Below, piece after piece: positions 19,035 to 63,078 of a DNA stretch of 64,000 bases. Source of the DNA: Pristiophorus japonicus (Eukaryota); NCBI RefSeq assembly GCF_044704955.1, contig NC_091991.1, positions 5,146,001 to 5,210,000 on the forward strand, given 5' to 3'. How positions within the stretch are numbered: position 1 is the first letter of the stretch; each line of letters starts with the position of its first letter. The notes under the pieces were generated by a model. It was not told the DNA's origin, searched no databases, and worked only from the letters and a program-made list of their open reading frames with translations. Made by a program: the position numbers and the translations under genes.

Positions 19035-19239
19035 TTAAAATGCTGCAACAACAACAACACTGAAGTTAACAGGAATCTTTTGTTGTTGAAGTCTAAACTG
19101 TGCATCGGAAAGCGACGAGGGCCGCACTGTGAGGTGGGCGAGCGGTGCTGTATATATTATATATATGTGCAGGTGATGCTGTATATGTTATATATATTAT
19201 ACACACACACACACACACCTGGAGCAGTTACCTGTGAGC

Positions 19240-22050
19240 CCACCTGGCCCCGGCCTCACCTGTTCCCCCCCCGGCCCACAGCCTCACCTATTCCCCAGAC
19301 ACCCGGCCTCCCCCCCGGCCCACAGCCTCACCTGTTCCCCTGACCCCCAGCCTCACCTGTTCCCTCCCCTCTTCCCCCCCCCCCCCCGCCCACAGCCTCA
19401 CCTGTTCCCCCGACCCCCGGCCCACAGCCTCACCTGTTCCCCTCCCCCCCCCCGGCCCACAGCCTCACCTGACCTCCCCCCCGGCCTCACCTGTTCCCCT
19501 CCCCCCTTGCCCACAGCCTCACCTGTTCCCCTCCCCCCTTGCCCACAGCCTCACCTGTTCCCCTCCCCCCCGGCCCACAGCCTCACCTGTTCCCCTCCCC
19601 CCTTGCCCACAGCCTCACCTGTTCCCCTCCCCCCCGGCCCACAGCCTCACCTGTTCCCCTCCCCCCCGGCCCACAGCCTCACCTGTTCCCCTCCCCCCCC
19701 CGGCCCACAGCCTCACCCTGTTCCCCTCCCCCCTTGCCCACAGCCTCACCTGTTCCCCTCCCCCCTTGCCCACAGCCTCACCTGTTCCCCTCCCCCCCGG
19801 CCCACAGCCTCACCTGTTCCCCTCCCCCCCGGCCCACAGCCTCACCTGTTCCCCTCCCCCCCGGCCCACAGCCTCACCTGTTCCCCTCCCCCCCGGCCCA
19901 CAGCCTCACCTGTTCCCCTCCCCAACCTCCCGGCCCACAGCCTCACCTGTTCCCCTCCCCCCTTGCCCGCAGCCTCACCTGTTCCCCTCCCCCCCGGCCC
20001 ACAGCCTCACCTGTTCCCCTCCCCCCCGGCCCACAGCCTCACCTGTTCCCCTCCCCCCCGGCCCACAGCCTCACCTGTTCCCCTCCCCAACCCCCCGGCC
20101 CACAGCCTCACCTGTTCCCCTCCCCAACCCCCCGGCCCACGGCCTCACCTGTTCCCCTCCCCCCCGGCCCACAGCCTCACCTGTTCCCCTCCCCCCTTGC
20201 CCACAGCCTCACCTGTTCCCCTCCCCCCTTGCCCACAGCCTCACCTGTTCCCCTCCCCCCCGGCCCACAGCCTCACCTGTTCCCCTCCCCCCCGGTCCAC
20301 AGCCTCACCTGTTCCCCTCCCCCCCGGCCCACAGCCTCACCTGTTCCCCTCCCCCCCCGGCCCACAGCCTCACCTGTTCCCCTCCCCAACCCCCCGGCCC
20401 ACAGCCTCACCTGTTCCCCTCCCCAACCCCCTGGCCCACAGCCTCACCTGTTCCCCTCCCCCCCGGCCCACAGCCTCACCTGTTCCCCTCCCCCCTTGCC
20501 CACAGCCTCACCTGTTCCCCTCCCCCCCCGGCCCACAGCCTCACCTGTTCCCCTCCCCAACCCCCCGGCCCACAGCCTCACCTGTTCCCCTCCCCAACCC
20601 CCCGGCCCACGGCCTCACCTGTTCCCCTCCCCCCCGGCCCACAGCCTCACCTGTTCCCCTCCCCCCTTGCCCACAGCCTCACCTGTTCCCCTCCCCCCTT
20701 GCCCACAGCCTCACCTGTTCCCCTCCCCCCCGGCCCACAGCCTCACCTGTTCCCCTCCCCCCCGGTCCACAGCCTCACCTGTTCCCCTCCCCCCCGGCCC
20801 ACAGCCTCACCTGTTCCCCTCCCCCCCCGGCCCACAGCCTCACCTGTTCCCCTCCCCAACCCCCCGGCCCACAGCCTCACCTGTTCCCCTCCCCAACCCC
20901 CTGGCCCACAGCCTCACCTGTTCCCCTCCCCCCCGGCCCACAGCCTCACCTGTTCCCCTCCCCCCTTGCCCACAGCCTCACCTGTTCCCCTCCCCCCCCG
21001 GCCCACAGCCTCACCTGTTCCCCTCCCCCCCCCGGCCCACAGCCTCACCTGTTCCCCTCCCCCCCCCGGCCCACAGCCTCACCTGTTCCCCTCCCCCCCG
21101 GCCCACAGCCTCACCTGTTCCCCTCCCCCCCTGCCCACAGCCTCACCTGTTCCCCTCCCCCCTTGCCCACAGCCTCACCTGTTCCCCTCCCCCCCGGCCC
21201 ACAGCCTCACCTGTTCCCCTCCCCCCTTGCCCACAGCCTCACCTGTTCCCCTCCCCCCCCGGCCCACAGCCTCACCTGTTCCCCTCCCCCCCCCGGCCCA
21301 CAGCCTCACCTGTTCCCCTCCCCCCCGGCCCACAGCCTCACCTGTTCCCCTCCCCCCCTGCCCACAGCCTCACCTGTTCCCCTCCCCCCCGGCCCACAGC
21401 CTCACCTGTTTCCCCCCCGGCCCACAGCCTCACCTGTTCCCCTCCCCCCCCCGGCCCACAGCCTCACCTGTTCCCCTCCCCCCCCCGGCCCACAGCCTCA
21501 CCTGTTCCCCTCCCCCCTTGCCCACAGCCTCACCTGTTCCCCTCCCCCCCGGCCCACAGCCTCACCTGTTCCCCTCCCCCCTTGCCCACAGCCTCACCTG
21601 TTCCCCTCCCCCCCGGCCCACAGCCTCACCTGTTCCCCTCCCCCCTTGCCCACAGCCTCACCTGTTCCCCTCCCCCCCTGCCCACAGCCTCACCTGTTCC
21701 CCTCCCCCCCGGCCCACAGCCTCACCTGTTCCCCCCCGGCCCACAGCCTCACCTGTTCCCCTCCCCCCCCCGGCCCACAGCCTCACCTGTTCCCCTCCCC
21801 CCCCCGGCCCACAGCCTCACCTGTTCCCCTCCCCCCCTGCCCACAGCCTCACCTGTTCCCCTCCCCCCCGGCCCACAGCCTCACCTGTTCCCCTCCCCCC
21901 CCCCGGCCCACAGCCTCACCTGTTCCCCTCCCCCCCCCCGGCCCACAGCCTCACCTGTTCCCCTCCCCCCCCCCCCCGGCCCACAGCCTCACCTGTTCCC
22001 CTCCCCCCCGGCCCACAGCCTCACCTGTTCCCCTCCCCAACCCCCCGGCC
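19240..22050. repeat. ~30-bp minisatellite, roughly 90 units, filling CAPS2 intron 1
   Basis: Unit GGCCCACAGCCTCACCTGTTCCCCTCCCCCCC with variable C-run and TTG/CAAC variants. Confidence 0.97.
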
Positions 22051-22054
22051 TTAC

Positions 22055-27202: not shown

Positions 27203-27495
27203 TCATTTCCCAAACTCATGCATTTTGTTGCGTCTTCTCAGCTCCATGGGTCCATGGGTTTCTGACAAATCTCCAAAGGCTTCATAATCCCCCTCGCTGT
27301 CCTCTGTGGAGATGCTGTACACAGACTCGGTCTCATCAAAAAATAATGTCGCAAACGGTTTACCAGTTATCGGATCAATATCCTCTAACGAATCTTCCTC
27401 ACTATCCGCAAAGATCCGATCTTCAGTCAGTTGTGTCTTTATCTCAATGTCCTGGACAAATTCTTCGAGATTCTCAGAGACAGGAACCAGTTCTT
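27203..27495 (-). CDS. RIC3/CCDC107-family protein, exon 6 (acidic tail ending MELRRRNKMHEFGK*)
   Basis: Pyrimidine-rich ctccag acceptor, phase 1, open frame to TGA at 27203-27205. The C-terminal LR[RK]R motif is typical of RIC3 and CCDC107. Confidence 0.88.
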
Positions 27496-27546
27496 CTGGA
27501 GTGGGGAGAAAAGGTTTAAATCACAATTCTAAACAGAAACTTTATA

Positions 27547-29699: not shown

Positions 29700-29955
29700 C
29701 ACCCATCCAACTCTTGTGCTTCTCTCCACACCTTCTCCAAAACTTGTGTCTCTCTCCCCCTGCTCATCCCAACTCTTGTATCCCTCACCCCTGCTCATCT
29801 CAACTCGTGTCTTTCTCCCCCCGCTTATCCCAACTCGCGTCTCTCTCGCCCTGCTCATCCCAATTCGTGTCTCTCTCGCCCTGCTCATCCCAACTCTTGT
29901 GTCCCTCTCTCCTCCCTGCACATCTCAACTCTTGTGTCTCTCTCCCCTTGCTCGG
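29700..29955. repeat. ~30-bp pyrimidine-rich minisatellite, about 8 units
   Basis: CTGCTCATCCCAACTCTTGTGTCTCTCTCCC-like unit repeated. Confidence 0.8.
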
Positions 29956-35432: not shown

Positions 35433-36059
35433 GAATCAATAATGATGTCCTCCCTCCCTCCTCCTCCTTCGCTCCCTCTCCCCCTCCCATCCACTCACTC
35501 TCTCCCTCCCTCTGTCCTTCTCTCTCCCTCCCTCTGTCCATCTCTCTCCCTCCCTCTGTCCATCTCTCTCCCTCCCTCTGTCCATCTCTCTCCCTCCCTC
35601 TGTCCATCTCTCTCCCTCCCTCTGTCCATCTCTCTCCCTCCCCCTCCCACCCACCCTCTCCCTCCATCCATCTCTCTCCCTCCATCCCACCCACCCATTC
35701 GCTCCCTCCCTCCATCCGTCTCTCTCCCTCCCCCTCCCACTCTCTTCCTCCGTCCGTCTCTCTCCCTCCCACCCACTCTCTCCCTCCCCCTCCCACCCAC
35801 CCTCTCTCCCCGTCCCACTCACTCACTCTCTTCCTCCCTCCCTCCCCCTTCCACTCTCTTCTTCCTTCTCTCTCACCCACCACTCCCGCCACGTGCTCCT
35901 CTCGGCTCCGCAGCAATGCCCGGGGAGGATCCAACCCCCCCTGCCTGCACCCACTAGGTGGGAGAGGGAGGGAGAGAGATGGAGGGAGGGGGAGAGGGAG
36001 AGAAGGAGGGGGGGGGGAAAGTGAGAGAGAGGAGGGAGGGAGGACATCATTATTGATTC
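35433..36059. repeat. Low-complexity CT/GA tract bounded by a perfect 31-bp inverted repeat
   Basis: GAATCAATAATGATGTCCTCCCTCCCTCCTC (35433-35463) and its exact reverse complement at 36029-36059. Confidence 0.85.
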
Positions 36060-36315
36060 GCATCCACTGCCACCTCCTCATTGGAGCAGACTCAGCGCCA
36101 CTAAAACTTTTAAAATTCGCGCCATCACTCCCTGCCCTGATTGGTTGCGGGGCTGGGCAGGCCCTGATCACCCATTGGTCAGTGCAACTGTCCCTCAGTC
36201 CGGACCACGTGCTCCCGCAACGCCTCCCCCCCCCCCCGCCCCCCCGCCTCAGGACAGACAAAAACTGACCTTTATTATTATAGATTTATAAAGTGCACTA
36301 CAGTGATGGGCTTAC

Positions 36316-36524
36316 CTGCACGAGTTTGTAAACTGCATATACACCTATGCCGATCGCATAAAGTGGCATTAATTGGAAAGCAAATCCTTTGGTTCTGCTC
36401 TGGGCCTTCTCACTGTTCATATCTTTTTGATTTACACTTCTCATCTGCTGCATCCTGAGATTAGGTGCTCCTTTGGGACCATCTGATTGAGAGTGTGTGT
36501 TTAATGGCTGCCCTCTTCCAGGAC
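36316..36524 (-). CDS. RIC3/CCDC107-family protein, exon 2 (includes TM segment GFAFQLMPLYAIGIGVYAVYKLVQ)
   Basis: ttacag acceptor and gtaagc donor; 209 nt, phase 1/0. The TM resembles recalled RIC3 GLMGQIIPIYGFGIFLYILYILFK. Confidence 0.92.
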
Positions 36525-41059: not shown

Positions 41060-41879
41060 ATCCACAATTGCAACTTACAATGATGTGTGATGGTAAATGT
41101 TGTGGGAATATGTTTTTAAAAATCGCATCAGGAATTAAGCCTACAATTTTCTTGGCAAATTTATTTGAATTAACTTTTCACTCACCAAGCACAGGTACTT
41201 GAACTTTAGCCAGAAGAAATGAAGCCTAAAAAAAGGAATAAAATGCACCTTTGGTATAGAAAAGGAGCTGGTCAGTGCAGCAAGGACAAGCCAATAACAG
41301 GCTACTACAAAAAGCAGGTGTAGCAAGAAAGCAGAGAAAGCAACTACATTGGATCTGCACTTGTTATCTCAGTGAAGCTACCTGTAAACTAGTGAATTGC
41401 CGTTTTTCACCACTGCAGCAGGAGACTAGTCACCACTGGTTAGTTACCAGGAAACCTACATACATCATGTTTAGTCTCTTAGCTCAGGGGAGCAATGATG
41501 CAGGCTGTACCTCAGAGAAAATATCACTTACTATTGCATTATTAATGCATTAGGCCGTTAGAACATAAACACCTAATCTGTCTGCCTTGGCGCAGTGGTA
41601 GCTCTCTCATCCAAGTCGAAAGGTTGTGGGTTCAAGTCCCACTCCAGAGACTTGAGCACACAATCGCGAGTGACACTCCAGTGCAGTGCTGAGGGAGTGC
41701 TGCACTGTTTGAGGAGCCGTCTGTCAGGTGAGACGTTAAACCGAGGCCCCGTCTGCTTCCTCAGGTGGACATAAAAGATCCCATGGCACTATTTCAAAGA
41801 GGAGCGGGGAGTTATATCATCTCCTTACCCTGGCCTTACAGCTGGTCAGTCCGTACACCCCACCTGATCCTGGTCGCCC

Positions 41880-42789
41880 ACACCCACGCAGTCAGTGCCC
41901 GTACATCCCCGCTCTAGGCCTGTAGCCCTTGGTCAGTGCCGGTACACCCCCGGGGTCAGTGCCCGTACACCCCCAGTCAGTGTCTGTAGCCCCCCCGGTC
42001 AGTGTCTGTAGCCCCCGGTCAGTGCCCGTACATCCCCGGGGTCAATGCCCGTACATCCCCCGGTCAGTGCCCGTACACCCCCCCGGTCAGTGCCCGTACA
42101 CACCCGGGGTCAGTGCCCGTACACACCCGGGGTCAGTGCCCGTACACCCCCCCGGTCAGTGCCCGTACACACCTGGGGTCAGTGGCCGTACACCCCCCGG
42201 TCAGTGCCCGTACACACCTGGGGTCAGTGGCCGTACCCCCGGACAGTCTCTGTAGCCCCCCGGTCAGTGCCCGTACACACCCGGGGTCAGTGCCCGTACA
42301 CCCCCCCGGTTAGTGCCCGTACACCCCCCGGTCAGTGCCCGTACCCCCTCCGGGGTCAGTGGCCGTACCCCCGGACAGTCTCTGTAGCCCCCCGGTCAGT
42401 GGCTGTACCCCCGGACATTGGCCGTACCCCCGGGGTCAGTGGCTGTACCCCCGGACATTGGCCGTAACCCCGGGGTCAGTGGCCGTACCCCCGGACATTG
42501 GCCGTAACCCCGGGGTCAGTGGCCGTACCCCCGGACATTGGCCGTAACCCCGGGGTCAGTGGCCGTACCCCCGGACAGTGTCTGTAGCCCCCCGGTCAGT
42601 GGCTGTACCCCCGGACATTGGCCGTACCCCCCGGTCAGTGGCTGTACCCCCGGACATTGGCCGTAACCCCGGGGTCAGTGGCCGTACCCCCGGACAGTGT
42701 CTGTAGCCCCCCAGTCAGTGGCCGTACCCCCGGGGTCAGTGGCCGTACCCTCGGACAGTGTCTGTAGCCCCCCCGGTCAGTGGCCGTAC
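41880..42789. repeat. ~20-bp minisatellite starting at the first base of intron 1 of the RIC3/CCDC107-like gene
   Basis: Units GGTCAGTGGCCGTACCCCC, GGTCAGTGCCCGTACACCCC, GGACATTGGCCGTAACCCC and GGACAGTGTCTGTAGCCCC. Confidence 0.95.
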
Positions 42790-42925
42790 CTGAGGGCCGA
42801 TGATGACCCGCTGCCGGCGCCGCGACCTGCTTCCCTCCGCCCGGCCCCAGTAACATCCGCGGAATCACCACAAACACACAAATAAACAGGCCCAGGGCCA
42901 GCGCCGTCTGCTGAGCCATCGCCAT
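42790..42925 (-). CDS. RIC3/CCDC107-family protein, exon 1 (MAMAQQTALALGLFICVFVVIPRMLLG...HHRPS)
   Basis: Strong Kozak GCCATGG, hydrophobic signal/anchor like the RIC3 N-terminus, TCAG|gtacgg donor; 136 nt, phase 1. The six exons total 900 nt (299 aa plus stop). Confidence 0.9.
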
Positions 42926-42939
42926 GGCAGCGGTAGGCC

Positions 42940-43375
42940 CGGCCCCGCCCCGCCCGGAGTCCAGGCTCCGCCCATAGACCAGGCCCCGCCCACAGCCCCG
43001 GAGCCCAGGCTCCGCCCATAGTCCAGGCCCCGCCCACAGCCCCGGAGCCCAGGCTCCGCCCATAGTCCAGGCCCCGCCCACAGCCCCGGAGCCCAGGCTC
43101 CGCCCATAGTCCAGGCCCCGCCCACAGCCCCGGAGCCCAGGCTCCGCCCATAGTCCAGGCCCCGCCCACAGCCCCGGAGTCCAGGCCCCGCCCACAGCCC
43201 CGGAGCCCGGAGTCCAGGCCCCGCCCACAGCCCCGGAGCCCAGGCTCCGCCCATAGCCCCGGCCCCGCCCACAGCCCCGGAGCCCAGGCCCCGCCCACAG
43301 CCCCGGAGCCCAGGCTCCGCCCACAGCCCCGGCCCCGCCCACAGCCCCGGAGTCCGGGCCCCGCCCACCGCCCGG
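42940..43375 (-). promoter_or_regulatory. Promoter-proximal tandem array (44-bp unit) of GC boxes
   Basis: Unit GGAGCCCAGGCTCCGCCCATAGTCCAGGCCCCGCCCACAGCCCC; about 20 GGGCGG (Sp/KLF) motifs directly upstream of the ATG. Confidence 0.75.
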
Positions 43376-43741
43376 GCCACAATGAGCGGAGCACAGAGAT
43401 GTCTCTCACTGTGGGGCTGTGGGAGGTTACAGAGACAGGGAGAGGTGAAGCTATGGAGGGATTTGGAAAACAAGGATGAGAATTTTAAAATGAAGGTGTT
43501 GCCGAACCAAGAGCCAATGTATGTCAGCGATTTGACATGCAAAATTCTAAAAATCATAAACAACTTGAATGTATTCTCAATATTGCCATGTGATGCAAAT
43601 CTGTATTATGAATTACATCTGCCTCACCTCTATATTTATCTCCAAAATGTTGTCGATAAATTGGATTGCCCTTGAGATAGAGGCCAATAAACATAAATGC
43701 ATGAACCAAGATGGGAAATGCAGAATACACAAACTGAATGT

Positions 43742-46700
43742 GTAGAAACATAGAAACATAGAAAATAGGTGCAGGAGTAGGCCATTCGGCCCTTCTAGCC
43801 TGCACCGCCATTCAATGAGTTCATAGAAACATAGAAAATAGGTGCAGGAGTAGGCCATTCGGCCCTTCTAGCCTGCACCGCCATTCAATGAGTTCATGGC
43901 TGAACATTCAACTTCAGTACCCCATTCCTGCTTTCTCGCCATACCCCTTGATCCCCCTAGCAGTAAGGACCTCATCTAACTCCTTTTTGAATATATTTAG
44001 TGAATTGGCCTCAACAACTTTCTGTGGTAGAGAATTCCACAGGTTCACCACTCTCTGGGTGAAGAAGTTCCTCCGCATCTCGGTCCTAAATGGCTTACCC
44101 CTTATCCTTAGACTGTGACCCCTGGTTCTGGACTTCCCCAACATTGGGAACATTCTTCCTGCATCTAACCTGTCTAACCCCGTCAGAATTTTATATGTTT
44201 CTATGAGGTCCCCTCTCATTCTTCTGAACTCCAGTGAATACAAGCCCAGTTGATCCAGTCTTTCTTGATAGGTCAGTCCCGCCATCCCGGGAATCAGTCT
44301 GGTGAACCTTCGCTGCACTCCCTCAATAGCAAGAATGTCCTTCCTCAGGTTAGGAGACCAAAACTGTACACAATACTCCAGGTGTGGCCTCACCAATGCC
44401 CTGTACAACTGTAGCAACACCTCCCTGCCCCTGTACTCAAATCCCCTTGCTATGAAGGCCAACATGCCATTTGCTTTCTTAACCGCCTGCTGCACCTGCA
44501 TGCCAACCTTCAATGACTGATGTACCATGACACCCAGGTCTCTTTGCACCTCCCCTTTTCCTAATCTGTCACCATTCAGATAATAGTCTGTCTCTCTGTT
44601 TTTACCACCAAAGTGGATAACCTCACATTTATCCACATTATACTTCATCTGCCATGCATTTGCCCACTCACCTAACCTATCCAAGTCGCTCTGCAGCCTC
44701 ACAGCATCCTCCTCGCAGCTCACACTGCCACCCAACTTAGTGTCATCCGCAAATTTGGAGATACTACATTTAATCCCCTCATCTAAATCATTAATGTACA
44801 GTGTAAACAGCTGGGGCCCCAGCACAGAACCTTGCGGTACCCCACTAGTCACTGCCTGCCATTCTGAAAAGTAGCCATTTACTCCTACTCTTTGCTTCCT
44901 GTCTGACAACCAGTTCTCAATCCATGTCAGTACACTACCCCCAATCCCATGTGCTCTAACTTTGCACATCAATCTCTTGTGTGGGACCTTGTCGAACGCC
45001 TTCTGAAAGTCCAAATATACCACATCAACTGGTTCTCCCTTATCCACTCTACTGGAAACATCCTCAAAAAATTCCAGAAGATTTGTCAAGCATGATTTCC
45101 CTTTCACAAATCCATGCTGACTTGGACCTATCATGTCACCTCTTTCCAAATGCACTGCTATGACATCCTTAATAATTGATTCCATCATTTTACCCACTAC
45201 CGATGTCAGGCTGACCGGTCTATAATTCCCTGTTTTCTCTCTCCCTCCTTTTTTAAAAAGTGGGGTTACATTGGCTACCCTCCACTCCATAGGAACTGAT
45301 CCAGAGTCAATGGAATGTTGGAAAATGACTGTCAACGCATCCACTATTTCCAAGGCCACCTCCTTAAGTACTCTGGGATGCAGTCCATCAGGCCCTGGGG
45401 ATTTATCGGCCTTCAATCCCATCAATTTCCCCAACACAATTTCCCGGCTAATAAGGATTTCCCTCAGTTCCTCCTCCTTACTAGACCCCCCGACCCCTTT
45501 TATAACCGGAAGGTTGTTCGTGTCCTCCTTCGTGAATACCGAACCAAAGTACTTGTTCAATTGGTCCGCCATTTCTTTGTTCCCCGTTATGACTTCCCCT
45601 GATTCTGACTGCAGGGGACCTACGTTTGTCTTTACTAACCTTTTTCTCTTTACATATCTATAGAAACTTTTGCAATCCGTCTTAATGTTCCCTGCAAGCT
45701 TCTTCTCATACTCCATTTTCCCTGCCCTAATCAAACCCTTTGTCCTCCTCTGCTGAGTTCTAAATTTCTCCCAGTCCCCAGGTTCGCTGCTATTTCTGGC
45801 CAATTTGTATGCCACTTCCTTGGCTTTAATACTATCCCTGATTTCCCTTGATAGCCACGGTTGAGCCACCTTCCCTTTTTTATTTCTATGCCAGACAGGA
45901 ATGTACAATTGTTGTAGTTCATCCATGCGGTCTCTAAATGTCTGCCATTGCCCATCCACAGTCAACCCCTTAAGTATCATTCGCCAATCCATCTCAGCCA
46001 ATTCACGCCTCATACCTTCAAAGTTAGCCTTCTTTAAGTTCTGGACCATGGTCTCTGAATTAACTGTTTCATTCTCCATCCTAATGCAGAATTCCACCAT
46101 ATTATGGTCACTCTTCCCCAAGGGGCCTCGCACAACGAGATTGCTAATTAATCCTTTCTCATTACATAACACCCAGTCTAAGATGGCCTCCCCCCTAGTT
46201 GGTTCCTCGACATATTGGTCTAAAAAACCATCCCTTAGGCACTCCAGAAAATCCTCCTCCACCGTATTGCTTCCAGTTTGGTTAGCCCAATCTATGTGCA
46301 TATTAAAGTCACCCATTATAACTGCTGCACCTTTATTGCACGCACCCCTAATTTCCTGTTTGATGCCCTCCCCAACATCACTACTACTGTTTGGAGGTCT
46401 GTACACAACTCCCACTAACGTTTTTTGCCCTTTGGTGTTCTGCAGCTCTACCCATATAGATTCCACATCATCCAAGCTAATGTCCTTCCTAACTATTGCC
46501 TTAATCTCCTCCTTAACCAGCAATGCTACCCCACCTCCTTTTCCTTTTATTCTATCCTTCCTGAATGTTGAATACCCCTGGATGTTGAGTTCCCAGCCCT
46601 GCTCATCCTGGAGCCACGTCTCCGTAATCCCAATCACATCATATTTGTTAACATCTATTTGCACAGTTAATTCATCCACCTTATTGCGGATACTCCTTGC

Positions 46701-47306
46701 ATTAAGACACAAAGCCTTTAGGCTTGTTTTTTTAACAACCTCACATTTATCCACATTATACTTCATCTGCCATGCATTTGCCCACTCACCTAACCTATCC
46801 AAGTCACTCTGCAGCCTCATAGCATCCTCCTCGCAGCTCACACTGTCACCCAACTTAGTGTCATCCACAAATTTGGAGATACTACATTTAATCCCCTCGT
46901 CTAAATCATTAATGTACAGTGTAAACAGCTGGGGCCCCAGCACAGAACCTTGCGGTACCCCACTAGTCACTGCCTGCCATTCTGAAAAGTCCCCATTTAC
47001 TCCTATTCTTTGCTTCCTGTCTGACAACCAGTTCTCAGATAGCCACGGTTGAGCCACTTTCCCTTTTTTGTTTTTACACCAGACAGGAATGTACAATTGT
47101 TGTAGTTCATCCATGCGGTCTCTAAATGTCTGCCATTGCCCATCCACAGTCAACCCCTTCAGTATCATTCGCCAATCTATCCTAGCCAATTCACGCCTCA
47201 TACCTTCAAAGTTACCCTTCTTTAAGTTCTGGACCATGGTCTCTGAATTAACTGTTTCATTCTCCATCCTAATGCAGAATTCCACCATATTATGGTCACT
47301 CTTCCC
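43742..47306 (-). mobile_element. Young CR1 LINE with intact endonuclease + RT frame, chimeric 5' end and duplicated 3' tail
   Basis: ORF 43914..47288 (1124 aa) carries [49 protein letters not shown] and FADD with no stops. The tail unit is repeated at 43742-43822 and 43823-43897. Confidence 0.95.
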
Positions 47307-48079
47307 ATTGAAGTGTTTAAAAGTAACTAAAATGCACCATTTTCAATGCAAAAATGCAGAATTTTCCAGGCTCCGCTAAAATGTAGCACAAGTTGATGCA
47401 CACATTGTTGGACATATTTGGAAGGAGCATCCATATTTCAAAATGTAATTTCTGGGTTATGACTAAGGGTCATGACCTGAAACGTTAACCCTGTTTCTCT
47501 CTCCACAGATGCTGCCTGACCTGCTGAGTATTTCCAGCATTTTCTGTTTTTATTTCAGATTTCCAGCATCCGCAGTATTTTGCTTGTGTGAACTAGATGG
47601 GCTTTGGTCTCTTTCCCAAAGAGAACAGATGAGATAACGTTTTGGACGTGGCTCTTTCGTCAAAACTGTTTTCACACATGGGTAATTGTTTTCCAGCAGG
47701 TTTCTTCTCGATCTGTGAGCTTTTTGCTGAAGCTGTTTTTCCAACTTTTGCTAGCTTTCCAGTTTGGCAGATATATATATATATATATATTTTTTAGGGT
47801 TAGGGTTATAACCAGTGGGAGTATTCCCCAGCTTGGCACCTCCAGCTCATTTGGAGTGAGTGAAGGTGCTTTAGCACAGGTAGTCCTATAAACATCTAGA
47901 TATTGGTTCTTGGTTGTACGCACAGTGGAAGATTAAGCAATTATTAACACCAGTTACCTGTTTTTTTTTCATCTGAAAATTAGAAGGAAGTGCCCCGCCA
48001 GCATTTCATTTTGTACGTGGCTATCTTGCAATTAGTTTTCGCAACTGAACCTGCACCATATTTGGGCGTGAAATCGGTA

Positions 48080-57439: not shown

Positions 57440-60400
57440 TATCATCATCATAGGCAGCCCCTCGGAATCGTAGAAGACTTGCTTCCACTCTAAAAATCAG
57501 TCCTTGGGTGGCTGAACAGTCCAATACGAGAACCACAGACCGTCTCAGGTGGGACAGATTGTCTTTTGAGGGAAAGGGTGGGTGGGATTGGTTTGCCACA
57601 CGCTCTTTCCGCTGCCTGCACTTGGTTTCTGCGTGCTCTCGGTGACGAGACTCGAGGTGCTCAGTGCCCTCACGGATGTACTTCCTCCACTTGGGGCGGT
57701 CTTTGGCCAGGGACTCCCAGGTGTCAGTGGGAATGTTGCACTTTATCAGGGAGGGTTTGAGGGTGTCCTTGTAATGTTTCCTCTGCCCACCTGTTCTATA
57801 TGTGGACTTGTATTTACTCTGTACAGCCACCAGAGGGCTCATCCGCTGGAGTCCCAAGGGATCCCATAATCCCTTGGGAGCACAGGTATTTAAGGAGGCT
57901 TCACAGGAGAGGCACTCTGGAGACCTGCAATAAAAGACTACGGTCACACTTTACTTTGAGCTCAGTGTTCAGTCTGACTCTTTCTCCATACACAACAACT
58001 GGCGACGAGATAAAGATAGCGAACCCAAAATGCAGAGAATAGTGGGCATCCTGGAAAAATTTTCTGAGGGAGATGATTGGGAAATATTTGTGGAGTGACT
58101 CGACCAATACTTTGTGGCCAATGAGTTAGCTGGGGAAGAGAGCGCTGCCAAACGAAGGGCGACTCTCCTCATCGTCTGTGGGGCATCAACGTATGGCCTC
58201 ATGAAGAATCTGCTCACTCCAGCGAAACCCAAGGAGGAATTGTACGATAATTTGTGCACACTGGTCCGAGAGCATTTGAACCCAAAGGAAAGCGTTCTGA
58301 TGGCGAGGTACTGGTTCTACACCTACAAAAGGTCTGAAGGCCAGGAAGTGGCGAGTTATGTCGTCGAGCTAAGATGCCTTGCAGAACATTGCAAATTTGA
58401 AGGACATTTTGAGCACATGCTCAGAGACTTTTTCGTACTTGGCATTGGCCATGAAATCATACTTCGCAAACTTTTGATTGTAGAGACCTCAACCTTGAGT
58501 AAGGCCATAGCGATAGTCCAGGCATTCATTGCCACCAGTGACAATATGAAGCAAATCTCTCAGCACACAAGTGCTGCTGCAAGTACTGTGAACAAAGTGA
58601 TGTTGTTTTCGAATTGTTACGTACCTGCAGTTGCACATCCGCAGATGACTGAGTCCACCATGAAGGGTGATGAATGCAAGGCCATTAACACCTTATTGGC
58701 GCTGCGGTCATCGTTTCCATTCATGCCGATTCAAAGAGTACGTTTGCAAGGGCGGTGGAACAATGGGAGAACTCCGAGTGTGCAGGCGAGCTGCTAAACC
58801 TGCAAACCACAATATTGCAGAGGAGGACAGATCCACGGAGGATCACGACGAACCTGAGCCTTAGATAGAGGAGGCAGAGGTACATGGGGAGCACACATTC
58901 ACCACGAACTGTCCCCTGATAATGCTGAATGTTGAACTAAATGGACTCCCGGTGTCAATGGAGCTGGGCGCGAGCCAGTCCATCATGGGCAAAAAGATTT
59001 TCGAAAGGTTGTGGTGCAACTAGGCCTCAAGGCCAGTCTTAACTCCAGTTCGCGCAAAACTAAGAACTTACACAAAAGAACTGGTTCCTGTAATCGGCAG
59101 TGCAACCGTAAAGGTCTCCTACGATGGACTGGTGCACAAGCTACCACTCTGGGTGGTACCGGGTGATGGTCCCATGCTGCTCAGCAGGAGCTGGCTGGGA
59201 AAGATACGTTGGAACTGGGACGACATCCGAGCGCTATCGCCCCCTGACGACACTTTGTGTGCCCAGGTCTTAAACAAATTTCCTTCGCTTTTCGAGCCAG
59301 GCATTGGGAAATCCCAAGGAGCAAAAGTGCAGATTCACCTAATTCCAGGGGGGCGATCCATCCATCACAAGGCGAGAGCAGTACCGTACATGATGAGAGA
59401 AAGGGTAGAGATTGAGCTAGACTGGCTGCAAAGAGAGGGCATAATTTCACCGATCGAGTTCAGCGAGTGGGCCAGTCCTATTGTCCCAGTCCTCAGGGGA
59501 GATGGCACCATCAGAATCTGTGCTGATTACAAAGTAACTATCAATCGTTTCTCCTTGCAGGACCAATACCCACTACCAAAGGCCGACGACCTCTTTGCAT
59601 CGCTGGCGGGAGGAAAGACGTTCACGAAGCTGGATCTGACTTCAGCCTACATGACGCGGGAACTGGAGGAATCATCAAAGACTCTCACCTGCATCAACAC
59701 GCCCAAGTGCCTTTTTATTTATAACAGATGCCCGCTTGGAATCCGATCAGCGGCGGCGATATTCTAGAGAAACATGGAAAGTATACTGAAGTCGGTCCCG
59801 CACACCATGGTCTTTCATCTTGGTCACAGTTCGGAACACAGTCGAGCACCTGCAGAACCTGGAGGAGGTTCTTAGTCGACTCAACCGCTTGGGGCTCAAG
59901 TAAAAACACTCAAAGTGCATTTTCCTGGCGCCTGAAGTGGAGTTCTTGGGAAGGAGGATTGCGGCGGACGGCATCAGAACCACCAACACGCAGACGGAGG
60001 CAATCGAGAACGCACCGAGGCCACAGAACATGACGGAACTGCGGTCGTTCCTGGGACTCATAAACTACTTTGGTAACTTCTTACCGGGTCTCAGCACACT
60101 GCTAGGACCACCAGATGTCTTATTACAAAAAGGGGGCGAATGGATTTGGGACAAAAGCCAAGAAAATGCCTTAATAAAAGCGAGAAAATTGTTATGCTCA
60201 AACAAATTGCTTGTGTTGTATGATCCATGTAAGCGTTTGGTACTAGCACGTGATGCGTTGTTATATGGTGTCGGGTGTGTATTGCAACAAGCTAATGATT
60301 TCAGGAAACTGCAACCGATTGCTTATGGATCCAGGAGTCTGTCTAAGGCTGAAAGAGCCCACAGCATAATTGAAAAAGAAGCGTTAGCGTATGTCTATGG

Positions 60401-63078
60401 AGTAAAGAAAATGCATCAGTACCTGTTTGGGCTAAAATTCGAATTGGAAACTGACCATAAGCCACTTATATCCCTGTTTTCCGAGAGTAAAGGGATAAAT
60501 ACCAACGCATCGGCCCGCAATCAGAGATGGGCACTCACGTTGTCCGCATACAATTACGCCATCCGCCACAGGCCAGGCACAGAAAACTGCGCCGATGCTC
60601 TCAGTAGGCTGCCATTGCCCATCACGGGAGTGGAAATGGCGCAGCCCGCAGATCTAGCCATGGTTATGGAAACATTTGAGCATGAGCAATCACCTGTTCC
60701 TGCCCGGCAGATCAAAACCTGGACAAGCCAGGACCCCTTATTATCTCTCGTCAAAAGCTGTGTGCTTCACGGCTTCAAAAGCTGGTCCAGTGTCCAGTGG
60801 AAATGCAGGAAGGGATAAAGCGGTTCCAGTGGCGTAAAGATAAAATGTCTATACAGGCAGACTGCCTTCAGTGGGGCAATTGAGAGTGGTCCCCAAGAAG
60901 GGCAGAAATACCTTCATCAATGACCTCCACAGTACCCACCCAGGTATCGTAATGATGAAAGCGATAACCAGATCCCACGTGTGATGGCTTGGTATCGATG
61001 CGGACTTAAGAGTCCTGCATTCACAGATGCAATACATGCTCGCAGTTAAGAAATGTACCCAGGGAGGCGCCGCTAAGTTTATGGTCTTGGCCCTCCAAAC
61101 CTTGGTCTAGGGTACACGTCGAGTATGCAGGCCCGTTCTTGAGTAAAATGTTCCTCGTGGTTGTAGACGCGTACTCCAAGTGGATTGAATGTGAGATAGT
61201 GTCGGCTAGCACGTCCGCTGCCACTGCTGAAAGCCTGCGGGCCATGTTTGCCACACACGGCTTACCCGATTTCCTGGTGAGCCACAATGGGCCATGTTTT
61301 ACTAGTGCTGAGTTCAAAGAATTCATGACCTGTAACGGGATCAAACATGTCACATCTGCCCCGTTTGAACCAGTGTCCAATGGTCAGGCAGAGAGAGCAG
61401 TGCAAGCCATCAAGCAAGGTTTGTAGAGGGTAACTGAAGGCCTATCCCAAGTCCTGCTTAGCTACCGCACGAGACCCCACTCTCACTGGGATCCCACCTG
61501 CTGAACTGCTCATGAAAAGAGCACTTAAGACAAGGTTCTCATTAGTTCACCCTGATTTACATGAACAGGTAGAGAGCAGGTGGCTTCAACAAAGTGCATA
61601 CCGTGATAGCGCAAATGTGTCACGTGAGATTGAAATCGTTGATCCTGGTTTTGTATTACATTATGGACAAGGTCCCAAGTGGCTTCCCGGCACTGCCGTG
61701 GCTCAAGAGGCGAGCAGGGTGTTTCGGGTCAAACTTTCAAATGGACTCATTCACTGGAAACACTTGGACCAAATCAAACACAGATTCATGGACTATCCTG
61801 AGCAACCCACCTTGGACCCTACCTTTTATGATCCCCCAACATATACACCAGTGGCAACCGGCACCACGGTTGACCATGAAGCAGAACCCATCATCCACAT
61901 CAGCCCTGCAGGGCCCAACACACCAGGCAGCCCAGCGAGGGCCCAACAAATGATTCAACAACACCAGCTTTCACACCGAGACGATCAACCAGGGCAAGAA
62001 GGGCCCCAGATCGACTCACATTGTAAATAGTTACACTACTGACTTTGGAAGGGGGGGGGGAAGTGTTATATATGTGGACTTGGACTTGTATTTATTCTGT
62101 ACAGCCACCAAAGGGCTCATCCCCTGTAGTCCCAAGGGATCTCATAATCCCTTGGGAGCATAGGTATTTAAGGAGGCTTCACAGGTTGGAGAGGCATTCT
62201 GGATACCTGCAATAAAAGACTACGGTCATACTTTACTTTGAGCTCACAGTGTTCAGTCTGACTCTTTCTCCATACACCACCTTTGGCTCGTTTGCCGTGA
62301 AGGAGTTCCAAGTAGAGCACTTGCTTTGGGAGTCTCGTGTCTGGCATGCGAACAATGTGGCCTGCCCAGCGGAGCTGATCTAAGTGTGGTCAGTGCTTCG
62401 ATGCTGGGGATGTTGGCCTGATCGAGGACGCTAACATTGGTGCGTCTGTCCTCCCAGGGGATTTGCGGGATCTTGCGGAGATATCATTGGTGGTATTTCT
62501 CCAACAACTTGAGGTGTCTCTACTGTACATGGTCCATGTCGCTGAGCCATACAGGAGTGCGGGTATTACTACAGCCCTATAGACCATGAGCTTGGTAGCA
62601 GATTGGAGGGCCTAGTCTTCAAACACTCTTTTCCTCAGGCGGCCGAAGGCTGCACTGGAGGCGGTGTTGAATCTCGACATCAATGTCTGCTCATGGTAAG
62701 AGGCTCCCGAGATATGGGAAATGGCCAGGGCTGTGCCGTGGATCTTGATGACTGGGGGGCAGTGCTGTGCGGCGGGGACAGGCTGGTGGAGGACCCTTGT
62801 CTTACAGATATTTAGTGTAAGGCCCATGCTTTCGTATGCCTCAGTAAATACTTGACTATGACTTGGAATTCAGCCTCTGTGTGCGCAGGCGCAGATGTCG
62901 TCTGCGTACCGTAGGTCGACGACAGGGCTTGGGATGGTCTTGGACCTGGCCTGGAGACGACGAAAGTTGAACAGGTTCCCACTGGTTCTGTAGTTTAGTT
63001 CCACTCCAGCGGGGAGTTTGTTGAGTGTGAGGTGGAGCATGCCAGCGAGGAAGACTGAGAAGAGGGTTGGGGCGATAA
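57440..63078 (-). mobile_element. RTE LINE 3' part (57440-57791 and 62282-63078) interrupted by a Gypsy element
   Basis: CTCTGCCCACC|TTTGGCTCGTTTGCC rejoins across the Gypsy; (GAT)n tail at ~57441-57450. Confidence 0.88.
57792..62277 (+). mobile_element. Full-length decayed Ty3/Gypsy LTR retrotransposon
   Basis: LTRs at 57792-57997 and 62064-62277; PBS TGGCGACGAG (tRNA-Ser-like) at 58000; polypurine tract ~62047-62063; TSD CACC. Gag, protease, RT (WASPIVPV, QYPLP), RNase H (ETDHKPL) and integrase (VVDAYSKW, SNGQAER) occur in Gypsy order with stops and frameshifts. Confidence 0.95.

Follow-up and report, generated by a model that had tools for sequence, protein, structure and literature searches.

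A minisatellite built on the intronic half of the first splice donor opens intron 1 of a CCDC107/RIC-3 gene in Pristiophorus japonicus

The window analysed, a 64,000-nt stretch of the Pristiophorus japonicus genome, holds two minus-strand genes, a CCDC107/RIC3-like gene and CAPS2. A profile search matched exon 2 of the CCDC107/RIC-3 gene to the Pfam family RIC3 (E 5e-13), and this exon is 100% identical to a P. japonicus protein named in UniRef as CCDC107 (isoform X2) or RIC-3 (isoform X1). When exon 1 and exon 2 were translated together, the N-terminus of the P. japonicus CCDC107 / RIC-3 entries P0001 and P0009 was obtained. Six CCDC107 coding exons were placed in the window by tblastn, and the neighbouring downstream gene matches P. 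japonicus calcyphosin-2. Exon 1 has its ATG at 42925 and its 3′ end at 42790, where the minus strand reads CAG/GTACGG (the slash marks the exon-intron boundary). The features discussed below are listed in Table 1.

Table 1. Coordinates of the CCDC107/RIC-3 and CAPS2 features in the window
Feature	Position	Strand	Description
CAPS2 first-intron array	19239..22054	-	32-bp unit holding the whole donor CAG/GTGAGG; first exon inferred from sequence
Exon 2 (RIC3 domain)	36316..36524	-	Pfam, tblastn, RNA-like contigs
Alternative exon, 40 nt, within intron 1	41186..41225	-	polypyrimidine acceptor; donor TTG/GTGAGT; X7 junction to exon 2
SINE-like interspersed repeat	41579..41815	+	79-86% to majority of five other window copies; without recognisable 3′ part
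Intron-1 minisatellite	41850..42789	-	42 units of 19-24 nt and 2 decayed units
Distal block, units 23-42	41905..42344	-	mostly 22-23 nt GGGCAC-type units, GT/AT tails
Proximal block, units 1-22	42345..42789	-	long (21-24 nt) and short (19 nt) units alternate, giving a 40-bp higher-order period
Exon 1 coding part, CCDC107/RIC-3	42790..42925	-	45 codons + 1 nt, hydrophobic N-terminal segment
GC-box minisatellite, unrelated to intron-1 array	42937..43378	-	19 GC-box-type units, 21 GGGCGG hexamers, 44-bp higher-order period

Some further observations concern the gene and its surroundings. P0001 and P0009 are one Glu apart at the last acceptor, where the minus strand reads CAG AAG (window 27490-27520); this would fit a choice between tandem acceptors (NAGNAG), and the Heterodontus entries P0002 and P0012 show the same single-residue difference. 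Just upstream of the CCDC107 promoter lies an open frame of 1142 codons (43914-47342, minus strand) which starts with out-of-order duplicated pieces and which we take to be a LINE, endonuclease/reverse-transcriptase-like. Broken gag/pol-like frames at 58099-62030 (plus strand) presumably belong to an LTR retrotransposon.

Intron 1 of CCDC107 opens with an array in which its own first ~20 bases recur about 42 times in tandem. The first repeat base is intron position +1 (42789) and the array extends for about 940 bp, which bears out the initial annotation, where a repeat of some 900 bp had been placed at intron base 1. The unit is made up of GTACGG, which is the intronic half of the donor, followed by a CCACTGAC core and a C/G run. 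TRF reported the region 41891-42789 with a period of 23 and 42.7 copies, and a higher-order period of 40 bp with 20.3 copies. Cutting the array at its TAC anchor gave 44 segments, of which 42 are 19-24 nt long and two are decayed (41904 and 41856). The units are arranged head to tail and fall in the 10-60 bp class, as CpG-island minisatellites do.

The two blocks of the array differ in composition. GGGCAC-type units are absent from the 22 units of the proximal block and account for 12 of the 20 in the distal block; GT/AT tails are likewise found in none of the proximal and in 15 of the distal units, whereas short-type units number 10/22 proximally and 1/20 distally. The edit distance between units grows with their separation (Mantel rho 0.24, p 0.0005), and among the 31 long-type units the distance to unit 1 grows with position (rho 0.63, p 0.0002), but no trend was found when all 42 units were taken (rho 0.015, p 0.92). 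The sequence drift with distance described earlier is thus real, although it proceeds blockwise and not as a trend from unit 1 across all 42 units. The last array units before the SINE (41579-41815) are without an exact twin. Two blocks with decayed ends are what ordinary local homogenisation would leave, as in the amphioxus mirages (PMC3087553).

A second, unrelated array flanks the other side of exon 1 and stops about 12 nt upstream of the CCDC107 ATG. It is built of GGGCGG motifs, which we take to be SP1-type GC boxes; it has a strong G4 potential with 10 canonical motifs, and transcription may start inside it. The region 41801-43400 has a GC content of 0.69-0.80 and a CpG o/e of 0.61-0.66, values of a CpG island and putative promoter. 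The outer ends of both arrays enclose 1529 bases, and the 147 of them that are non-repeat belong to exon 1. With the GC-box array abutting the other side, the CpG island is therefore all tandem repeat except exon 1, and exon 1 is the part of the island spared by expansion. Since the GC-box array, which the initial annotation missed, is present, the expansion is not donor-specific but a property of the island. A 10-mer common to the promoter array and the CAPS2 unit was not significant (p 0.094). By eye, the plus strand was also seen to carry a donor-like site immediately ahead of the upstream GC-box array. According to the available text of PMC8096271, CpG islands and the 1 kb upstream of human genes are enriched in VNTRs, and the arrays at CCDC107 resemble these in being GC-rich, in having units of at least 7 bp and in lying near a putative transcription start. 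Unlike the human CpG-island VNTRs, two arrays here clamp one exon.

The units carry only the intronic part of the donor. GTACGG was found 26 times in the array; none of the 26 copies is preceded by AG or CAG, and 11 are preceded by G. In a local alignment, the last 25 exon bases matched the array no better than shuffles did (p 0.94), and among the later segments a match to the exon was seen at position -2 in 3/43 and at position -3 in 1/43. The first unit lies exactly at the exon-intron boundary, and the unit does not include exonic bases. Donors were scored as matches out of 9 to the CAG/GTAAGT form of the MAG/guragu consensus (PMC1557585). The authentic donor CAG/GTACGG has 7/9 matches, departing at +4 and +6, whereas the GTACGG copies have only 4-5/9, because the exonic CAG is absent from them. 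The distal part does contain three CAG/GT sites (at 42217, 42172 and 41863), and two of these, the CAG/GTGTGT sites of the distal block at 42217 and 42172, reach 7/9, equal to the real donor. Just behind the array, at 41828, there is a donor-like AGG/GTAAGG.

Donor-start minisatellites are already known, and the half-donor unit is a minor variation on them. The available text of PMC1557585 describes the 37-bp VNTR of F7 intron 7, together with arrays in intron 2 of the 6-16 gene, CBS intron 13, lamin B2 and PDGF intron 4, and reports that in F7 the most upstream donor of the array wins. As in this group, the CCDC107 array begins at the donor, whose bases recur along the intron. One RNA contig (X6) shows the upstream donor in use. 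The F7 unit, however, includes the final 4 bases of the exon, and its pseudo-donors are identical to the real donor (PMC1557585, as far as its available text goes), while the CCDC107 copies have at most the -1 G in common with it (11/26) and none follows AG. The copy number also differs, being 42 at CCDC107 versus 5-9 in F7 and up to ~25 in the other human cases described in that text, and the CCDC107 array differs from the F7 group in lying in a first intron and in a CpG island. The amphioxus 'mirage' minisatellites of Adh3 and of the globins BflGb6 and BflGb9 offer a second comparison. From what is accessible of PMC3087553, they too lie at an exon boundary, undergo concerted evolution inside and have diverged boundary units; their normal splicing is apparently unaffected, and a lineage-wide occurrence has been suggested. 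The mirages span the boundary, which the CCDC107 unit does not, and length instability has been shown for the mirages (PMC3087553, available part). As the boundary-spanning feature is missing, we do not file the CCDC107 array as an F7 or mirage member.

It is conceivable that the founder unit did span the exon end and that G-runs later replaced CAG, perhaps because decoy donors were selected against, so that the array would be an eroded one of the F7/mirage type. This class is well documented (PMC1557585, in its available part), the adjacent CAPS2 array belongs to the F7 class by its sequence, and the three distal CAG/GT sites could be read as remnants. However, no ACGG follows these sites, a single substitution separates them from the common CCCCGGGTGT tail, and the proximal units bear no trace of the exon end, as the alignment above indicates. 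We therefore regard an eroded array as improbable.

The array in the neighbouring gene is of a different kind. As the initial annotation held, the two units are unrelated, the longest word common to both being 7 nt. The claim that both arrays have the same architecture failed: at CAPS2 83 of the 85 GTGAGG copies are preceded by CAG, so that the whole donor is repeated, versus 0/26 copies after AG at CCDC107, where only the intronic half is repeated. The architectures therefore differ. Judged by its sequence, the CAPS2 array is of the published F7 type and the CCDC107 array appears to be a half-donor variant, which shares with it the position only. The CAPS2 donor has 8/9 consensus matches; the inferred first exon is apparently non-coding and without an upstream array, and the inferred first intron measures 3011 nt. 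The proposal that such arrays stand ahead of TE-inflated introns fails for CAPS2, where about 93% of that intron is array. At CCDC107, interspersed repeats make up 54% of the remainder of intron 1, no more than in the window as a whole at 50% (counting only repeats with a second copy inside the window). Two side observations were made at CAPS2. The end units have a shorter form than the middle units, and, because of the AG/GT inside it, every unit could act as donor and acceptor, as in the tandem-duplication model of intron gain.

The association of arrays with first donors stood up within the window, where it exceeds chance. Among the 11 donors mapped, arrays begin at 2/2 first donors versus 0/9 others (Fisher p 0.018), a post hoc comparison of small n in which the CAPS2 first exon is an inferred one. 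Under uniform placement of the seven arrays of at least 100 bp, two first-donor hits have P ~2e-4; such a test within the window does not distinguish an effect of the 'first donor' from one of the 'CpG island'. Of the other intronic arrays of at least 100 bp, four in number, two are also G-rich on the sense strand and lie 684 nt (29741-29953) and 272 nt (35449-36043) from the donor. The latter position falls in a GC-rich patch of intron 2 (35449-36260, minus strand) that contains G-runs, CCAAT-like motifs and, 272 nt after donor 2, a purine-rich repeat; the patch may represent an internal promoter or an insertion.

These counts favour a donor-focused mutational process, in which transcription-linked breaks or slippage would seed duplications at first donors, generally in cartilaginous fishes, with R-loops, G4, polymerase pausing or promoter-directed recombination as candidate causes. 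In line with the last of these, the accessible portions of PMC10369914 and PMC11161765 report raised recombination near promoter-like features where intact PRDM9 is lacking, and PMC5519329, in its available part, reports that some cartilaginous fish have a weak SSXRD domain or none. Against such a process, the promoter side has expanded too, and the CCDC107 array contains no canonical G4 motif versus 60 in CAPS2. None was found with loops up to 7 nt and six were found with loops up to 12 nt, and the G4Hunter-type mean, from our own implementation of the score, is 0.64 versus 1.79. G4 is thus weak as a driver common to both arrays, contrary to what had been suggested. The G-richness of the sense strand is present but more modest than the initial annotation implied, with G at 41%, C at 28% and a skew of 0.18, which is the same as the skew of exon 1. 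Overall, we consider a donor-focused process unlikely, though it is the strongest competitor to local expansion within the island.

At its distal end the array borders on the SINE-like repeat, whose similarity to the other copies falls from 79-86% to 45% where the decayed array end starts (41815-41890). The distal array end coincides with the break-off of this SINE, and one SINE copy matches one unit at 16/20 positions, which raised the question of whether the unit came from the missing 3′ part of the SINE and the array grew from there toward the exon. This match was not significant, the best of 10 unit types reaching p 0.11 against run-preserving shuffles, and the distal zone compared with four SINE tails behaved like shuffles (p 0.21-0.54). 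A TE derivation of the unit from the adjacent SINE family is thus not indicated (p at least 0.11), and blastn of the unit against the rest of the window gave no match. Moreover, the unit consists of a working donor's own first bases, which speaks against an origin in the SINE. We reject the SINE as the source of the unit and regard this origin as very improbable.

RNA evidence was taken from four runs compared at exon 2, with one contig per run, and such contigs drop rare forms. The X5, X6 and X7 contigs cover exon 2 exactly and then pass to exon 3; these runs therefore contain spliced RNA. X1 has a gap at exon 2, which carries no information. No RNA run was among the matches to 41840-43400, and this does not bear on expression. 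In the other direction, the X5 contig ends at the exon 2 acceptor and the X6 contig runs on from exon 2 into 42793-42822, the end of exon 1. The authentic donor is thus spliced to exon 2 in one X6 contig, and the authentic exon 1-2 junction was found in one of the three RNA-like runs. The X7 contig runs on into 41187-41216, within the 40-nt exon, the comparison covering 30 of its 80 overhanging bases. No array-internal junction was seen in X5, X6 or X7, with one contig per run and with a decay that would hide cryptic products. A premature stop is expected from 32 of the 33 donor-like sites in the array and just behind it, only that at 42687 being open through exon 2; such products would therefore probably be cleared by nonsense-mediated decay. 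Since the only RNA contig with an exon 1 junction uses the genuine site, the array is likely a harmless repeat expansion.

The 40-nt exon itself, if placed after exon 1, would shift the frame and bring in a stop codon (poison exon), and if used as first exon, would lead to loss of the N-terminal hydrophobic segment. Its peptide resembles the N-terminus of Heptranchias isoform X2 (P0003) weakly (10/14 residues, E 5.8), and the exon may be conserved between Pristiophorus and Heptranchias. Two checks for structured RNA were negative. The 331 nt spanning the donor gave a z of 0.92, with 85/100 shuffles folding as well, and the single Rfam match (E 0.094) was far below threshold.

The G-runs of the array were compared with GrIn1, which PMC2275096 defines in its available text by a minimum of four G-runs on the non-template strand within the first 100 nt of intron 1. 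At CCDC107 this stretch contains four G-runs, the GrIn1 minimum, and one C-run, and G-runs continue at 4-8 per 100 nt throughout. The likeness extends to the SP1-type GC boxes upstream, and the same text ties SP1 motifs to upstream G-richness. There, GrIn1 is given as a statistical feature of tetrapod genes, with a frequency of 48% in human, 14% in frog and <1% in zebrafish, and is not defined as a tandem repeat, whereas the G-rich start of CCDC107 is made by a minisatellite and is found in a shark. By its sequence, the CCDC107 array would accordingly be classed as a CpG-island minisatellite and, with the lowest qualifying number of G-runs, as a G-rich intron-1 element.

Such G-runs, together with U1 half-sites, might have been selected as a splicing or U1 enhancer, boosting a non-consensus donor or shielding a long intron against early polyadenylation. 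The donor departs from the consensus at two positions, seven AATAAA/ATTAAA hexamers lie deeper in intron 1, the G-run density satisfies the published definition, and G-triplets influence splicing, as stated in the accessible part of PMC2275096. On the other hand, the copies are weak U1 matches, a few G-runs would be enough, and a selected enhancer should need no 900 bp of churning units. The same source, as far as available, finds intron length uncorrelated with G-run number in human first introns, and the CAPS2 donor, with its 8/9 matches, needs no help. We rate a selected enhancer slightly lower than an eroded F7-type array.

An assembly artefact is scarcely credible. In its favour, DNA runs contain only 45-50% of the sampled words of 41840-43400 and may be the assembly's own sample. 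Against it, the window contains no N, and heterogeneous units with ordered variants are not produced by collapse or duplication errors. A search for orthologous shark DNA in metagenome contigs gave 94 pattern matches, of which none was confirmed, and a search of sequencing runs led to one organism only, with seven runs, the four that contain this DNA coming from a single sample.

With moderate confidence, we read the array as a near-neutral tandem expansion within the CpG island of a promoter, its edge probably being held at the exon by coding selection. A stretch of ~20 nt, from the donor GT to the next G-run, would have been duplicated as the founding event, and the GG that straddles the boundary between exon and intron may have provided the microhomology. 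The units would then have been multiplied and locally homogenised by slippage and by unequal exchange or conversion, while duplications entering the 136-nt coding exon would have been purged by selection. Selection on the coding exon likely sets the proximal edge of the intron-1 array and likewise the edge of the GC-box array on the other side. We infer that the gene likely tolerates the array: its copies make weak donors, in such arrays the donor furthest upstream prevails, as shown for F7, and RNA spliced at the wrong site would be degraded; the origin, the neutrality and this decay are the conditional parts of the account.

Some points weigh against near-neutral expansion within the island. 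The +1 register in both genes and the start of the unit with the donor hexamer would equally fit an origin at the donor. At CAPS2, the first exon is apparently non-coding and without an upstream array, and both the coding constraint and the two-sided pattern therefore fail there. Finally, the two internal CAG/GTGTGT sites appear as strong as the real donor by their consensus scores.

In the available literature no report was found on first-donor minisatellite enrichment in sharks or on the CCDC107 locus, most subscription papers and supplements being outside the scope of the search. Repeats are known to affect splicing and to occur at exon-intron boundaries (PMC10078293 and PMC2812944, available text, where first donors are not counted). 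As a single locus, the array matters little, being a tolerated repeat beside a working donor. The contrast with CAPS2 is more informative, since it indicates that an array exactly at a first donor is possible without a copy of the exon end and without strong G4 potential. Genome-wide enrichment tests must therefore treat half-donor and whole-donor arrays as separate classes and allow for the density of repeats in CpG islands.

Tentatively, and with more doubt than confidence, we raise the possibility that cartilaginous fishes convert promoter CpG islands into arrays clamping exon 1, with edge motifs amplified above the local minisatellite density. The edge motifs would be GC boxes upstream, and the donor or half-donor with G-runs downstream. 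If this is true, first-donor minisatellites would be a genome-wide shark trait and the footprint of promoter-directed breakage or recombination. They would also represent an independent route to G-rich first introns, a feature which PMC2275096, in its available part, dates to the fish-frog split and gives as absent in zebrafish. Such arrays may, by inference, make short-read shark assemblies miss first exons. Should the enrichment survive the controls, it would provide a sequence footprint of DNA breakage and recombination in sharks, together with many natural tests of 5′ splice-site choice.
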